Source of the DNA: a virus
Lineage: Duplodnaviria; Caudoviricetes
Strand: one strand, 5' to 3'
Length of the DNA stretch: 62,773 bases
IMG/VR virus record: IMGVR_UViG_3300011921_000007
Coordinates: 1-62,773 of that record
In this document: positions 28,957 through 33,510 of the stretch, in pieces
Position numbering within the stretch: the stretch's first letter is position 1
Layout of the letters: each line of letters opens with the position of its first letter
Notes under the pieces: generated by a model
Told to the model about the DNA's origin: nothing
Database searches by the model: none
The model's input: the letters and a program-made list of their open reading frames with translations, nothing else
Position numbers and translations under genes: made by a program

Positions 28957-29865
28957 ATGGCTATTTCACGCGCACAGCTCCTTAAAGAGCTACTACCAGG
29001 TCTTAATGCATTATTCGGTTTAGAGTATGCACGATATGGTGAAGAACACACTGAAATCTACGAAACAGAGACTTCAGAGCGTTCATTCGAAGAAGAAACA
29101 AAATTGTCTGGCTTCTCAGCTGCACCTGTTAAAAACGAGGGCTCTGCCATCGCTTACGACAATGCTCAAGAGGCATGGACTGCTCGATACAACCACGAAA
29201 CAATCGCTTATGGCTTCAGCTTAACTGAAGAAGCTATCGAAGATAACTTGTATGACTCATTGTCTGCTCGTTATACTAAAGCATTGGCTCGTGCTATGGC
29301 TTACACGAAACAAGTGAAAGCTGCAGCTGTATTGAACAACGGCTTTAACGCTTCATACGTAGGTGGTGACGGTACTTCATTGTTCTCAACTACCCACAAC
29401 TTAGTGTCTGGTGGCACCAACAGTAACCGCCCAGCAGTTGCAGCGGACTTGAACGAAACTTCATTGGAAAATGCAGTTATTCAAATCGCAGCTTGGACTG
29501 ACGAACGTGGTCTATTGATTGCAGCTAAACCTAAGAAACTTATCGTTCCACCAGCATTGCAATTCGTTGCAACACGTTTGTTGGAAACTAAGTTACGCGT
29601 AGGTACTGCTGACAATGACATCAACGCCATTGAAAACAACGGTTCAATCCCAGAAGGTTACACAATTAACCACTTCTTGACCGACAACAATGCTTGGTTC
29701 TTGACTACAGACGTGCCAAACGGTATGAAACACTTTGTTCGTACGCCATTGCAAAATAGCATGGACGGTGATTTCGATACAGGTAACGTACGTTACAAAT
29801 CTCGTGAGCGTTATAGCTTCGGTTATTCTGACCCACTAGGTATGTACGGTTCTCCAGGCGCTTAA
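28957..29865 (+). CDS. Major capsid protein
   Basis: MAISRAQLLKELLPGLNALFG...K.EG.AI.YD...RERYSFG.SD; strong codon bias; followed by terminator. Confidence 0.9.
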   Translation: MAISRAQLLKELLPGLNALFGLEYARYGEEHTEIYETETSERSFEEETKLSGFSAAPVKNEGSAIAYDNAQEAWTARYNHETIAYGFSLTEEAIEDNLYDSLSARYTKALARAMAYTKQVKAAAVLNNGFNASYVGGDGTSLFSTTHNLVSGGTNSNRPAVAADLNETSLENAVIQIAAWTDERGLLIAAKPKKLIVPPALQFVATRLLETKLRVGTADNDINAIENNGSIPEGYTINHFLTDNNAWFLTTDVPNGMKHFVRTPLQNSMDGDFDTGNVRYKSRERYSFGYSDPLGMYGSPGA

Positions 29866-29887
29866 TTTGGCTTGGTAGTGTTATCCC

Positions 29888-29941
29888 CCTGATGGTTTCG
29901 ACTGTCAGGTGCAAGGGCCCTTCGGGGCCCTTTGCTTTTTT
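29888..29941 (+). terminator. Tandem UUCG hairpins, second one an intrinsic terminator
   Basis: CCTGATGGT-TTCG-ACTGTCAGG then AAGGGCCC-TTCG-GGGCCCTT-TGCTTTTTT. Confidence 0.85.
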
Positions 29942-29955
29942 AATGGTTTTCCGTA

Positions 29956-29983
29956 TTGCAACGTGTTTATAAAAGCGCAGAAT
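29956..29983 (+). promoter_or_regulatory. Putative pqqA promoter
   Basis: TTGCAA-16 nt-CAGAAT followed by hairpin TGTGCACA-TCGA-TGTGTACA (29991-30010). Confidence 0.45.
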
Positions 29984-30035
29984 GTGTACATGTGCACATC
30001 GATGTGTACACTCAATCGACTTAAGGAGATATACT

Positions 30036-30107
30036 ATGTGGACAACACCAGCAGCTACTGAAATGCGTTTTGGCTTTGAAGTTACTATGTACGTAATGAA
30101 TAAATAA
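30036..30107 (+). CDS. pqqA: Coenzyme PQQ precursor peptide PqqA (23 aa)
   Basis: MWTTPAATEMRFGFEVTMYVMNK with ExxxY; RBS TAAGGAG; below ORF-track size cutoff. Confidence 0.95.
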   Translation: MWTTPAATEMRFGFEVTMYVMNK

Positions 30108-30226
30108 GGTATAATAAATGTAATACGCACAACACCTCTGCGAAAGTACGTGTTGTCTATTATACCCCGCACGCCTATGCCGCCCTCATTCATCCGAGCA
30201 AGCGCCACGCGCAACCTTGCGGGGTT

Positions 30227-30598
30227 TTATTTTTCTGTGAGTTGACCTGACTTAAGTTGCCGTTCTTCGTGGTGATGTTTACGATGGCAGTTGGCGCATA
30301 GGACTATGCATTTGGCTTCTATTTCTTCACGGGCTATTTTATAAGCTCCGTTCTGTACTAATTCACTTATCTTTCTGTTGGCTGGGTCGGGTACTACGTG
30401 GTGGAAGTCTAATGCTGATGGGTGGTTTTCACCACAGTTGGCGCAAGCAAGTGTTGCTTTAAATGCTTCCCATTGAATGCGTTTCTTTATCTTTCCTAAT
30501 CGAACACGCTCAATCTGTGCGGGCTTGTTGCCTTCATAATGTTTCTTCGAATATAACTTTGCTTTTGCCTTGCGAACTGCGGGGTCTTTGTATGGCAT
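30227..30598 (-). CDS. HNH endonuclease, antisense in structural arm
   Basis: MPYKD..., CANCG...LDFHH...KCIVLCANCHR; start moved to ATG 30598. Confidence 0.85.
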   Translation of the reverse strand: MPYKDPAVRKAKAKLYSKKHYEGNKPAQIERVRLGKIKKRIQWEAFKATLACANCGENHPSALDFHHVVPDPANRKISELVQNGAYKIAREEIEAKCIVLCANCHRKHHHEERQLKSGQLTEK

Positions 30599-30616
30599 AG
30601 TTAACCTAATAAAACA

Positions 30617-30645
30617 TTGACATACGAACAATAACATAGTATAAA
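30617..30645 (+). promoter_or_regulatory. Sigma70-type promoter
   Basis: TTGACA-17 nt-TATAAA. Confidence 0.75.
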
Positions 30646-30656
30646 TCAGTTATCAA

Positions 30657-30729
30657 CCGGGAAAAATCCGGCCTACTAGACTGTCCCGGCAGACGCATAC
30701 AAGACTATTAGGCTTTACTTTGTATGGAG
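30657..30729 (+). ncRNA. Candidate pseudoknotted 5' leader RNA
   Basis: Three interleaved helices: CCGGGA/TCCCGG, GCCTA-c-TAG/CTA-t-TAGGC, CATACAA/TTGTATG (last touches GGAG). Confidence 0.55.
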
Positions 30730-30737
30730 ATATTCAC

Positions 30738-31193
30738 ATGGCTAACACCACATTCAGCGGCCCAATACGTGCCGGTAACATCGCTAACACAACAGGTACC
30801 ACATTAGGTACTAACGTTGCCAACATCGGCCAAGTAGTAATGGCACAATCATCACCAATCACACAAGCTTCAGCTGCAACAACTATCGTAATCCCAGCAA
30901 ACAGCCAAATCGTTGAAATCAACGTATGGGTTTCAGCTGTATGGTCAGGCGTAGCAACTACATTTGGTGTAGGTACAACAGTATTGGCTACTAGATTCAC
31001 AGCCGCAGGTGCAGTTGATGGCGCAGCAATTGGTGTGTTGTCAGTTACTCCAGGTACAGATGCTACACGTACAGGCGCTTTCATTGATGTAGGTACTACA
31101 GACGTTAAGATTGCTGTTACTTCTACAAACACAGGTACAGGCGCTGGTGTAATCACCGTTCGTTACGTTCAAGCTAATAACTTAACTGCTTAA
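30738..31193 (+). CDS. Virion structural protein (minor capsid-like)
   Basis: MANTTFSGPIRAG...IPANSQI; start moved to ATG 30738 (GGAG). Confidence 0.75.
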   Translation: MANTTFSGPIRAGNIANTTGTTLGTNVANIGQVVMAQSSPITQASAATTIVIPANSQIVEINVWVSAVWSGVATTFGVGTTVLATRFTAAGAVDGAAIGVLSVTPGTDATRTGAFIDVGTTDVKIAVTSTNTGTGAGVITVRYVQANNLTA

Positions 31194-31201
31194 TTAATCT
31201 A

Positions 31202-31221
31202 GGGGCTTCGGCCCCGCTTTC
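31202..31221 (+). terminator. Short UUCG hairpin / weak terminator
   Basis: GGGGC-TTCG-GCCCC-GCTTT. Confidence 0.55.
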
Positions 31222-31239
31222 AATCTAAGGAGATTAATT

Positions 31240-31716
31240 ATGGCAATGCAATATGATGTAAAATCAAAACATGCTTCCTCAAGCGGCCTTATGGTTAATG
31301 GTAGGACTAGAGTAAAGGGCGCAGTAGTATTTCCTTTTACTGGTGCAACAGGGTACATTGCGTTTGTAGATAACGTAAGCATCACAGGCACATACGCAAG
31401 GTCAACGACAACTGCTACCATCACAGCTGTAAATCATGGATTATCGGTTGGCGACTGGACCTATTTAGACTGGGACTTAACTGATAACCCATACCAAGTC
31501 CAAACAGTTGCGGATGCAAATACATTTACAGTAACGGTTGCAAATAGTGGCGGAACTAGCGGAGCAGTTGTTGTTTACAACGACGTTCTGTTACAAGCCG
31601 ACGCATCTGACCCTATCCCATACAATATTGTTGTTCCAGGTGAAGGTATTCTTGCGCATGTCGGTATTAGAGTGTTTCTTCCCGCTAATATGCATACAAC
31701 ACTATTCTACGGCTAA
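31240..31716 (+). CDS. Virion protein with inserted beta-sandwich
   Basis: MQYDVKS...PGEGIL...FYG frame interrupted by TITAVNHGLSVGD...NTFTVT module. Confidence 0.7.
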   Translation: MAMQYDVKSKHASSSGLMVNGRTRVKGAVVFPFTGATGYIAFVDNVSITGTYARSTTTATITAVNHGLSVGDWTYLDWDLTDNPYQVQTVADANTFTVTVANSGGTSGAVVVYNDVLLQADASDPIPYNIVVPGEGILAHVGIRVFLPANMHTTLFYG

Positions 31717-31960: not shown

Positions 31961-32089
31961 ATGATAGTAAACGAAAATGGACAGGGTGGCAAAAAAGAGC
32001 CTAAGAAAGAAACTAAAGAAGTAAAAGCAAAAGAAGACAAACAGTCTTTCTTCTCTGTGAAAGCTAAGAAAAATGCCGAGCAAGAGTAA
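31961..32089 (+). CDS. Small Lys/Glu-rich peptide (42 aa)
   Basis: Not in track; AGGAG RBS; MIVNENGQGGKKEPKKETK... Confidence 0.5.
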   Translation: MIVNENGQGGKKEPKKETKEVKAKEDKQSFFSVKAKKNAEQE

Positions 32090-32456
32090 ACCACAAGCAA
32101 AACTAATGGCAGCTGCGGCGCATAATCCTAAATTCGCTAAGAAGGTAGGTATCCCCACTAAAGTAGCCAAAGAGTTTAATGATGCTGACAAGGGCAAGAC
32201 TTTTAAAAAAGGCGGTGTATCATTAGCCGTTGGTCGTGGTGAGAAACTAGCTACCGATAAAGGTGCTGGACTTACAGCCAAAGGTCGTGCAAAGTATAAC
32301 GCAGCAACAGGGTCTAACTTAAAAGCCCCTCAGCCAGAAGGTGGCCCACGTAAGAAATCGTTTTGTGCCCGTATGTCAGGTATGCCAGGCCCAATGAAAG
32401 ACGAGAATGGCAAACCTACTCGTAAAGCAGCGTCATTAAGACGTTGGAAATGTTAA
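32073..32456 (+). CDS. Basic protein (DUF6321-like C-terminus)
   Basis: MPSKSKPQAKLMAAAAHNP + FKKGG + KSFCARM...SLRRWKC. Confidence 0.7.
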   Translation: MPSKSKPQAKLMAAAAHNPKFAKKVGIPTKVAKEFNDADKGKTFKKGGVSLAVGRGEKLATDKGAGLTAKGRAKYNAATGSNLKAPQPEGGPRKKSFCARMSGMPGPMKDENGKPTRKAASLRRWKC

Positions 32457-32469
32457 TAAAGGAATCATT

Positions 32470-32685
32470 ATGAAACACGAAGACATTAAGATGGACAAAA
32501 AGATGGCTAAAAAAGCTATCGGCATGCATGAGTCACAACTACACGGTGGTAAAAAGTCAGACCTAACTAAACTTAAATCTGGCGGTTCAGCTTCAGCCCG
32601 TGCAGATGGTTGTGCTACTAAAGGTAAGACAAAAGGTAAGATGATTGCCATGTGTGGTGGCGGTATGTATAAAAAGGGTAAATAA
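32470..32685 (+). CDS. Small basic protein
   Basis: LKSGGSASARADGCATKGKTKGKMI. Confidence 0.7.
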   Translation: MKHEDIKMDKKMAKKAIGMHESQLHGGKKSDLTKLKSGGSASARADGCATKGKTKGKMIAMCGGGMYKKGK

Positions 32686-32687
32686 TT

Positions 32688-32960
32688 ATGGCTAAGAAAA
32701 TAGAAGCATGGGAAGCAGAAGTAGACAACGGGTCTGCAACACCAACACCCCCAAAAAAATCTGCACCTCCGCCACCCCCTCCAGCTCCAAAGGCTAAGGT
32801 TAAACCTAAACAAAAAACATATCCTATTGGGCAAACTGAAGACGACATGAGCATTAACATGAAAAGCGGCGGTTGCGCTAAGATGTCTAAAGGTGGTTCA
32901 GCTTCTAGTCGTGCTGATGGTTGCGCTCAACGTGGTAAAACACGCGGTAAGATGGTGTAA
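32688..32960 (+). CDS. Small basic Pro-rich protein
   Basis: MSKGGSASSRADGCAQRGKTRGKMV, paralogous tail to 32470. Confidence 0.7.
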   Translation: MAKKIEAWEAEVDNGSATPTPPKKSAPPPPPPAPKAKVKPKQKTYPIGQTEDDMSINMKSGGCAKMSKGGSASSRADGCAQRGKTRGKMV

Positions 32961-32962
32961 TC

Positions 32963-33262
32963 ATGAGACCGTCTCGTGGTATGGGTGATATAGCCCCAAG
33001 CAAAATGCCTAAGAAAAAGATTATCACCCGCAAGGATGACCCTAATAAGGTTGAGCTGTTTAAAGAGGGTGGTAAAGTGGGCCTTCCTGCGAGTAAAAAT
33101 GTCAACGCTGCTGGTAACTACACAAAGCCTGAACTAAGGAAGCGTATAGTATCGCAAGTTAAGTCAGCTGCAACACACGGTACAGGCGCAGGTCAATGGT
33201 CAGCTCGTAAGGCACAGCTAGTAGCTAAGAAGTATAAAGCCGCAGGTGGTGGTTATAAGTGA
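32963..33262 (+). CDS. Basic protein (DUF5872-like)
   Basis: MRPSRGMG...FKEGG...NYTKPELR...GQWSARKAQ...GGGY. Confidence 0.7.
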   Translation: MRPSRGMGDIAPSKMPKKKIITRKDDPNKVELFKEGGKVGLPASKNVNAAGNYTKPELRKRIVSQVKSAATHGTGAGQWSARKAQLVAKKYKAAGGGYK

Positions 33263-33510
33263 GTGCGTTAGCTAAAAGCCAAAAGTCTTTAAAAGCTTGG
33301 GGCGACCAGAAATGGACAACCAAGTCCGGTAAGAAATCATCTGAAACAGGTGAGCGTTACTTGCCAGAGAAAGCAATAAAGGCATTGACCCCTGCAGAGT
33401 ATGCAGCGACAACCAAAGCGAAGCGTAAAGGCAAAGCAAGCGGCAAGCAGTTCGTAGCCCAGCCTGATAAGATTAAAAGCAAAGTTAAGCCATATAGGAA
33501 GGTAACATAA
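33259..33510 (+). CDS. Basic protein
   Basis: SQKSLKAW.DQKW.T...ERYLP; overlapping junctions. Confidence 0.7.
   Translation: MSALAKSQKSLKAWGDQKWTTKSGKKSSETGERYLPEKAIKALTPAEYAATTKAKRKGKASGKQFVAQPDKIKSKVKPYRKVT

Follow-up and report, generated by a model that had tools for sequence, protein, structure and literature searches.

Between the promoter and the start codon of a virion-protein gene, the genome of a tailed virus (Duplodnaviria; Caudoviricetes) carries a short stretch in which three helices can interleave, and this raises the question of whether such a fold is real and what it might do at this position. The window analysed here is the whole virus record IMGVR_UViG_3300011921_000007 of IMG/VR, 62,773 bases long. 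The stretch in question, at 30654-30737, is best explained as the structured 5′ leader of the mRNA of a cement (capsid decoration) protein. A preliminary description had seen a chained double pseudoknot here, and had taken it for an uncharacterised translational switch or a virion-associated RNA. Our results confirm that the leader holds a real, conserved knotted fold, and relate it to an RNA motif that has so far been filed under the gene upstream of it.

A knotted leader at the start of the cement mRNA

A sigma-70-type promoter on the + strand (30617-30645), with TTGACA at 30617-22, a spacer of 17 nt and TATAAA at 30640-45, matches 11 of 12 consensus positions, and from this sequence transcription would start near 30652. 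All elements of the leader lie on the same strand. The -10 box ends 11 nt ahead of the first helix, P1, in which CCGGGA (30657-30662) pairs with TCCCGG (30684-30689), as seen in both the sequence and the alignment. Inside the P1 loop lies the 5′ strand of P2, GCCTACTAG (30671-30679), whose partner CTATTAGGC (30705-30713) lies inside the loop of P3; this duplex has a single C.U mismatch (C.T in the DNA; 30676/30708). The core of P3 joins CATACAA (30696-30702) to TTGTATG (30720-30726), and one further G.U pair extends its strands to 30696-30703 and to TTTGTATG (30719-30726). The final G of the latter strand is also the first G of the Shine-Dalgarno (SD) sequence GGAG (30726-30729), which stands 8 nt ahead of the cement-gene ATG (30738-30740). 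The tetranucleotide AGAC occurs three times in the leader (30678-81, 30691-94 and 30702-05). The whole element measures ~85 nt and the fold proper ~70 nt, and a covariance model search finds one copy in the window, a record judged 99% complete. The helices were all found at the coordinates given in the preliminary description, and its near-consensus promoter, its three AGAC repeats and the use of the first G of GGAG by P3 were borne out as well.

The three interleaved perfect stems score 48 in the window leader, compared with a maximum of 40 in 100 dinucleotide shuffles (0/100 reach 48), and P3 alone was matched by 7/1000 shuffles of its 3′ region. The nested minimum-free-energy fold of the leader is no more stable than that of shuffled sequences (z = +0.18), a result that is uninformative either way because the program cannot score pseudoknots; this nested structure contains P1 and P3. 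The calculated helix energies are -8.8 kcal/mol for P1, -7.5 kcal/mol for the P2 duplex and -5.3 kcal/mol for P3. RNA-library contigs of relatives cover 30681-31242 (X2) and 30679-30726 (X4), and an exact 192-nt contig lies over 30522-30713 in a run whose RNA status is a guess; the RNA runs are represented by assembled contigs with word shares of 0.04-0.18, which cannot show start site, strand or level.

Covariation in related leaders

A protein-based scan of viral contigs for homologues of the cement gene gave 80 loci. Together with the window, 78 sequences had at least 95 nt upstream of the gene, and these reduced to 64 distinct leaders, every one of which (64/64) carries one of two forms of the element. 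The architecture of the window, class A, is present in 47 leaders, of which 46 resolve into perfect interleaved stems and one (L008) has a mismatch in P1. The remaining 17 leaders carry a shorter form, class B, recognised in 16 of them by its own pattern and added to by L045. Both forms occur in phage isolates, class A in phage DSL-LC04 and class B in the Roseobacter phages CRP-901 and CRP-902.

The class A leaders contain 10 distinct P1, 32 distinct P2 and 14 distinct P3 helices between constant linkers. In a plain MAFFT alignment of the 46 leaders, 85.3% of the cells were paired, compared with 63.1 ± 1.0% in shuffles (0/500 reach this value), and the covariation score was 0.560, compared with 0.050-0.139 when the partners were slid by 1-3 columns. 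P2 was 94.8% paired, with changes on both sides in 8/8 pairs, and P1 was 88.2% paired, with changes on both sides in 5/7 pairs. In a stem search of each sequence by itself, 45 of 48 leaders outscored all 100 of their dinucleotide shuffles. For P3, counts taken from MAFFT or model-fitted alignments (67% paired in alignment A1, 50% in A4) were dropped in favour of a shuffle test on each sequence; pairing is low in these alignments because the 3′ strand is aligned by the SD sequence, while its register shifts by at least one column between clades. In the test that replaced them, at most 50/1000 shuffles reached the observed P3 helix in 44/46 leaders.

Helices with the own partner are on average longer than those with partners from other clades, at 6.9 vs 4.7 base pairs for P3, 8.2 vs 4.8 for P2 and 6.2 vs 4.8 for P1; this comparison was set aside as too noisy, since 44/90, 75/90 and 57/90 cross pairs reach the smallest own value. 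Compensatory steps can be seen between near relatives, for instance from CCTAG/CTAGG to CCTAA/TTAGG and from TTGCAG/CTGCAA to TTGTAG/CTACAA. Hence, the interleaved order P1-P2-P1′-P3-P2′-P3′ of the preliminary description is upheld by the shuffle tests as well as by the covariation in homologous leaders that it had called for, in all three helices. Frequent G.U pairs in both classes show that the folded strand is the + strand RNA.

The clamp helix and the GAC junction

The leader contains a fourth helix, which the preliminary description had missed. This clamp of 3 bp pairs CUG (30681-30683) with CAG (30690-30692); it flanks the 3′ strand of P1 and thereby encloses that strand as a loop. Over the 46 leaders, 92/92 of its cells are paired; the outer pair is always C-G, and the second pair is GC in 27, UA in 13, UG in 4 and AU in 2 of them. 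The observed topology is that of two hairpins, P1 (on the clamp) and P3, with their loops joined by P2, that is, a kissing-loop or double pseudoknot.

The three AGAC repeats form the invariant junction of class A. Their GAC triplets lie at 30679-81, 30692-94 and 30703-05 in the window. G30679 of the first triplet pairs with C30705 of the third and so closes P2, and C30681 of the first pairs with G30692 of the second and so closes the clamp; by these two closing pairs the three triplets are interlocked. The invariant unpaired nucleotides of class A are A30680, A30693, C30694, G30703 and A30704. The first of these is the A of the first triplet, invariant in the 46 class A leaders and in 119 class B leaders, where the position falls within the pattern used to find them. 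A and C of the junction ACG (30693-30695) belong to the second triplet, which is invariant as G38, A39 and C40 of the first row of the alignment, and the GA of the third (30703-30704) is invariant as G49 and A50, although G30703 may instead lengthen P3. A further pair, between C of the second triplet and G of the third, is speculation: neither nucleotide varies, so that covariation cannot test it. The junction has a pseudo-threefold character: three G-A-C strands, in which each G closes one helix, each C opens the next and the A between them stays unpaired.

A new structural class of the Mu-gpT-DE motif

Class B is the motif known in Rfam as Mu-gpT-DE (RF03012). The model matched 3/3 class B loci and 20/20 further loci at 51-72.5 bits, compared with a gathering threshold of 49. 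Rfam types the family as 'Gene; sRNA', where sRNA denotes small RNA, and describes an outer helix CCUG/CAGG around a hairpin CAGnn...nnCUG, with the model ending at the AUG. The same model gave no match to the window leader at E ≤ 10, neither in 29800-31300 nor in 30640-30760, and matched 0/8 class A loci, while the class A covariance model (R1) in turn does not detect class B leaders. Because RF03012 does not detect the window leader, class A represents a new structural class of a known orphan motif, and because neither model finds the other class, the presumed common descent of the two classes is derived from their context and their junction alone. The term 'uncharacterised' in the preliminary description therefore needs qualification. 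The sister form already has an Rfam entry, so that the comparison with Rfam proposed there finds the motif half catalogued; yet that motif is without a known function, and no Rfam model detects the form present in the window.

In context, both classes stand in the slot that follows a Mu-like gpT capsid gene, and the gene next to them on the downstream side encodes a product with the N-terminus M[AG]x[ST]TFxG. In structure, both have three GAC strands, with P2 closed by G of the first and C of the third, and the next helix closed by C of the first and G of the second. The outer helix of Mu-gpT-DE corresponds to P2 and the base of its hairpin to the clamp, with the same A, AC and GA left unpaired, and the invariant junction columns of the class A and class B alignments coincide. 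In both, P3 reaches the region of translation start. The differences lie in the helices themselves. The 9-bp P2 of the window is free in sequence, whereas that of Mu-gpT-DE is the invariant CCUG/CAGG. Of the local hairpin of Mu-gpT-DE only the 3-bp base CUG/CAG is kept in the window, where a 6-nt loop pairs instead with a 5′ extension (P1) and thus creates a second pseudoknot. Accordingly, the window element is longer (~85 nt vs 53). Its P3 pairs next to or with the SD sequence, in contrast to that of Mu-gpT-DE, which pairs with the start codon.

The classes also replace each other among close relatives. In a quick tree of the cement proteins, class B and the ACTATAC subgroup of class A (leaders with ACTATAC as the 5′ strand of P1) each need at least four label changes on well-supported branches, and a class A and a class B leader (L025 and L045) belong to sister proteins. 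These label changes make the two classes look interchangeable.

The start-codon helix of class B emerged from 119 distinct leaders found in a DNA pattern scan that was independent of protein similarity. Where GCC precedes the last GAC, (A/U)UGGC follows in 86/86 leaders, and where CCC or ACC precedes it, AUGGG follows in 33/33. The pair at columns 41-67 is GC in 86, CG in 21 and something else in 11 leaders (mostly a one-base register shift), and the helix is 88.2% paired; the swap from G-C to C-G may reflect few independent events. P3 thus exists in class B as well, where it includes the start codon and covaries with the second codon of the downstream gene. P2 of class B covers the AGG of the SD sequence, and its invariance in this set was required by the search pattern. 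Since the RF03012 model stops at the AUG, it cannot hold this start-codon helix in full.

We present the start-codon pseudoknot of Mu-gpT-DE as new, although the supplements of two earlier studies may already list it. The motif comes from the survey of 224 candidates by Weinberg et al. (2017; PMC5737381), the main text of which does not mention it, and the available text of Rivas (2020; PMC7657543) names it only within a list of RNAs that gained covarying pairs. Likewise, the supplements of the IMG/VR survey of Fremin (2023; PMC10690425), with 8,495 candidate RNAs, may list a nested model of the class A leader. Literature searches on Mu-gpT-DE, on Mu-like or gpT RNA motifs, and on pseudoknots or translational repression of cement proteins returned no functional study.

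The cement protein and its N-terminal arm

The gene behind the leader (30738-31193, + strand) encodes 151 amino acids with the N-terminus MANTTFSGP. Its product is assigned as a cement protein from structural likeness and from the homologue in phage DSL-LC04, which is annotated 'cement protein'; the 'virion gene' of the preliminary description thus acquires a more precise identity. The AlphaFold model (predicted local distance difference test, pLDDT, 71.8) found its best Foldseek matches in the PDB in the Pam1 capsid chain 7eel_H (E 4e-4), KHP30 7dn2_1, GP4 8h89_J and the KHP40 cement protein 7dou_4. The protein is also predicted to be trimeric. The homotrimer model reached an interaction prediction score from aligned errors (ipSAE) of 0.94, compared with 0.00 for the best control, with at least 78% of contacts shared among three runs and a partner pLDDT of at least 86. 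The ipSAE mark used was reached by 20/30 proteins solved as same-chain pairs and by 1/23 solved as single chains, and since similar trimers have already been solved, the pass may only mirror likeness to them. The available part of PMC9698820 describes cement proteins of this fold as trimers, anchored on the capsid by an N-terminal loop in Pam1.

The genes behind the 119 class B leaders are more varied. Only 61/119 of their open reading frames (ORFs) match the profile of the window cement family and 58/119 do not; yet 113/117 of the proteins start with M[AG]x[ST]TFxG[PAV], at lengths of ~70-295 amino acids. At the loci L083-L202 the proteins share only their first dozen residues, M[AG]x[ST]TFxG[PAV][VI][RK][SA]. 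Varied bodies behind a constant N-terminus imply that the leader and the N-terminal arm are conserved as a module, and these sequences suggest a conserved capsid-binding arm fused to exchangeable decoration domains.

Proposed control of cement translation and its alternatives

We consider it fairly probable that the leader is a cis-acting control element for translation of the cement gene, perhaps also affecting the stability of its mRNA, and that it answers to some factor. A cis role is favoured by the presence of the element before the homologous gene in all 64 distinct leaders, by the start-codon pairing of class B, and by P3 of the largest class A group, which takes up the first AGG of AGGAGG. 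Standing at the predicted 5′ end of the transcript and ending in or against the ribosome-binding site (RBS), the fold would set how easily the 30S subunit starts on the cement gene, and the knotted leader may also slow decay from the 5′ end. Translation of cement would fall when some factor stabilises the fold, and the preferred candidate for this effector would be the unassembled, trimeric cement protein. Synthesis would then track the amount of capsid lattice free to absorb cement, as with S15 on rpsO and gp32 on T4 gene 32. Such autogenous control, proposed by analogy, is a tentative idea that may well turn out to be wrong. In a more general form, the earlier proposal of a riboswitch-like or protein-sensing translational switch that sets stoichiometry remains plausible; nothing was found in support of a virion-associated RNA.

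In a specific version of the feedback, the three conserved N-terminal arms of the free cement trimer (M-A-N-T-T-F-S-G-P-V/I-R), with which it holds on to the capsid lattice, would also bind the pseudo-threefold GAC junction. Cement translation would thereby be switched off by its own product until expanding capsids took up the trimer and so lifted the block. We regard this version as a long shot. If true, it would constitute an assembly-coupled feedback that fixes the ratio of cement to capsid protein, and it would account for the joint occurrence of the leader and the first dozen codons as a module ahead of decoration domains that are otherwise unrelated.

Several observations speak against control by the cement protein, or against control by masking of the RBS. 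In the window and in class A outside the ACTATAC group, the SD sequence follows P3 closely on the 3′ side, with little or none of it sequestered, so that simple occlusion is ruled out as the general mechanism. The cement protein has no match among Pfam or PHROG families, and hence no RNA-binding domain was found in it; as read from its sequence, it has few basic residues. The five invariant unpaired nucleotides offer only a small surface for specific recognition by a protein. Moreover, the covariance models of the two classes miss each other's leaders, and as close cement relatives use either class, any protein effector would have to read the shared junction alone.

An alternative explanation, which we judge unlikely though not negligible, is a constitutive 5′ element without a ligand, which would guard the mRNA from 5′-end-dependent decay and would keep the RBS and the P1 loop from misfolding, for a high output of cement protein. 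The free SD sequence of the window and of most class A leaders outside the ACTATAC group would suit such an element, as would the P1 loop of class A, which is A/U-rich and variable in length, and the position of the transcript end. In class A a -10-like box ends 6 nt ahead of P1 in 25/45 leaders (11 nt in the group of the window), and in class B it ends 8-9 nt ahead of the first helix in 79/115, which would put the predicted start 0-5 nt ahead of the first helix in both classes. A high demand for cement would also fit the available part of PMC9698820, which gives a ratio of 1:1 to the capsid protein in phage GP4. Against a constitutive role, a simple stabiliser needs neither an invariant three-strand junction nor three interlocked helices. 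For the stabilisation of mRNA, 5′ hairpins are usually enough. Furthermore, the class B fold engages both the SD sequence and the start codon in pairing, so that initiation should be reduced, not raised.

A riboswitch, in which the GAC junction would form a pocket for a small molecule or ion, with a concentration that mirrors the condition of the infected cell, and binding would shift the balance between the knotted fold and an open RBS, seems improbable to us. Covarying helices around invariant junction nucleotides are a typical architecture for a riboswitch, and the size of the element is similar to that of small pseudoknot riboswitches. A switch would also be suited by the CCGG-GAAAAAT-CCGG hairpin that the preliminary description had noted as a competitor of P1. 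This hairpin does exist, as CCGG at 30668-30671 (+ strand) can pair with 30657-60 at -5.6 kcal/mol, compared with -8.8 kcal/mol for P1. Yet by hand count only 13/46 of the stem-resolved class A leaders have an equivalent, one clade with the covarying version CTGG/CCAG, and it is missing from the largest class A group. A riboswitch class typically regulates several genes for metabolism or transport. In contrast, this element is tied to one structural-protein gene in all 64 distinct leaders and to the same N-terminus in the 113/117 pattern-found cases, and it is matched by no riboswitch or aptamer model of Rfam.

That the element acts in trans as an sRNA, or forms a 'downstream element' tied to the capsid gene, which is what the type and name of the Rfam entry suggest, appears very improbable. 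It does always follow a Mu-gpT-like capsid gene. A capsid-gene homologue lies upstream on the same strand in 72/82 related loci, and the other 10 loci hold only 18-593 nt of upstream DNA. However, a terminator scan found no terminator on the + strand between 30586 and the cement-gene ATG, and the following gene contributes its SD sequence and start codon to the fold, which also covaries with the second codon of that gene. The distance to the capsid gene varies as well. In class B, the spacer from capsid gene to ATG is 109-160 nt, except for 85 nt at the leader with a short hairpin (L045), and a T-run terminator precedes the element in 110/118. In class A it is 111-181 nt at some loci and ~610-645 nt in the ACTATAC group, while the remaining loci, among them those with inserted HNH and pqqA genes, span 275-1,527 nt; in the window, 872 nt with two other genes separate the capsid gene from the cement gene and its leader, and other class A spacers measure 434-880 nt. 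This variable spacer shows that the element goes with the downstream gene and not with the capsid gene. Each locus gave a single match to the covariance model.

The pistol ribozyme has the strand order P1, a pseudoknot strand in the P1 loop, P1′, P2, the pseudoknot partner and P2′, and small ribozymes occur in phages. Although the leader, read as P1-PK-P1′-P2-PK′-P2′ (PK, pseudoknot), resembles this topology minus the P3 hairpin, self-cleavage is barely conceivable, since the hairpin that bears the cleavage site of pistol and the context of that site are missing, no pistol, hammerhead, twister, hepatitis delta virus (HDV) or hatchet model matches even in a 121-nt scan at E ≤ 10, and cleavage at the 5′ end of a leader would have no evident use. 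This agrees with the preliminary description, which had set aside HDV, hammerhead and twister. The sole Rfam match to the leader at E ≤ 10 was RT-5 on the minus strand, at 13.2 bits compared with a gathering score of 45.7, and was judged to be due to chance.

Comparison with known operators and significance

The preferred reading, a cis-acting control element that perhaps answers to the cement protein, has its closest functional parallels in autogenous operators. S15 binds the pseudoknot in the leader of E. coli rpsO and represses its own translation. According to the available part of PMC3985624, the rpsO leader can adopt either a pseudoknot or a set of hairpins, and its pseudoknot incorporates the translation start. 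In class B the start region is likewise part of the knotted fold, with P2 on the AGG of the SD sequence and P3 on the start codon, whereas P3 of the window takes only the first G of GGAG. There is no relation in sequence or family between the two systems, and the cement protein is no known RNA binder. The leader of T4 gene 32, as far as the available parts of PMC535899 and PMC3014915 describe it, is likewise a pseudoknot at the 5′ end of a phage mRNA, and serves autogenous repression by a protein that is otherwise titrated by a structural ligand. It differs in being a simple H-type pseudoknot far upstream of the RBS, where it nucleates cooperative binding, and it has no homology to the window leader.

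Until now Mu-gpT-DE was an orphan motif that bore the type sRNA and took its name from the upstream gene; it is reread here as the 5′ leader of the gene downstream. Its function becomes testable through three results: the pairing with the start codon of the downstream gene, together with covariation with the second codon of that gene; the existence of class A, a more knotted form that escapes the Rfam model and fills the same role in many aquatic phages; and the identity of the downstream product as a cement protein. Should the element turn out to act as a feedback operator, it would add to the few documented examples of tailed phages that adjust the stoichiometry of capsid decoration at the level of translation. 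In addition, the kissing-loop fold, with its ~70 nt on a symmetric GAC three-way junction, is a compact object for work on RNA structure and might find use in synthetic biology as a regulatory part.

Genomic neighbourhood of the leader

The major capsid gene of the window (28957-29865, + strand) is Mu-gpT-like (Pfam Phage_capsid_4 at 54.8 bits; Mu-like_gpT at 35.3 bits, cut-off 20.1). It is followed on the same strand by a terminator-like hairpin (29913-29932) with an 8-bp stem, of which 6 pairs are G-C, and a T run. The slot between this terminator and the leader promoter (29933-30616) takes up variable cargo among the loci. At the loci of the ACTATAC group that were checked (L011, L016, L028) it holds two small ORFs of ~85-89 and 69-74 amino acids, at L043 an ORF of 226 amino acids, and at L065 five tRNA genes.

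In the window, one of the two genes in this slot is an ORF of 23 codons on the + strand (MWTTPAATEMRFGFEVTMYVMNK; 30036-30107), preceded by the SD sequence TAAGGAG at 30023-29. It belongs to the PqqA family (Pfam PqqA at 40.3 bits, cut-off 21.1), a match that makes it a phage-borne gene for the precursor peptide of pyrroloquinoline quinone. Similar ORFs occur in the slot at L001, L005, L007, L010 and L034. The stretch is 78-90% identical to DNA of Methylophilales (OM43/LD28) phages. It is also covered by a pile of RNA-library contigs whose flanks differ widely, with a summed word depth of ~30,000 in one metatranscriptome; this pile-up is probably host pqqA mRNA and points to a methylotroph as the possible host.

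The other gene encodes an HNH endonuclease on the minus strand (30227-30598; PHROG 2255, E 1.7e-20) and lies between the capsid gene and the leader. Homologues stand in the same slot at L001, L004 and L006 and not at 76 other loci, and the gene has the appearance of an inserted homing endonuclease. The + strand promoter and the start of the leader are overlapped by a promoter-like site of the minus strand (30628-30656; TTGATA, 17 nt, TATTGT with TG). This site would serve the HNH gene, and the two promoters would then be divergent and overlapping. On the other side of the cement gene, at 32073-33510 on the + strand, follow four or five small, very lysine-rich ORFs, one of them with a DUF6321 domain (82.5 bits), which may encode internal or ejection proteins.

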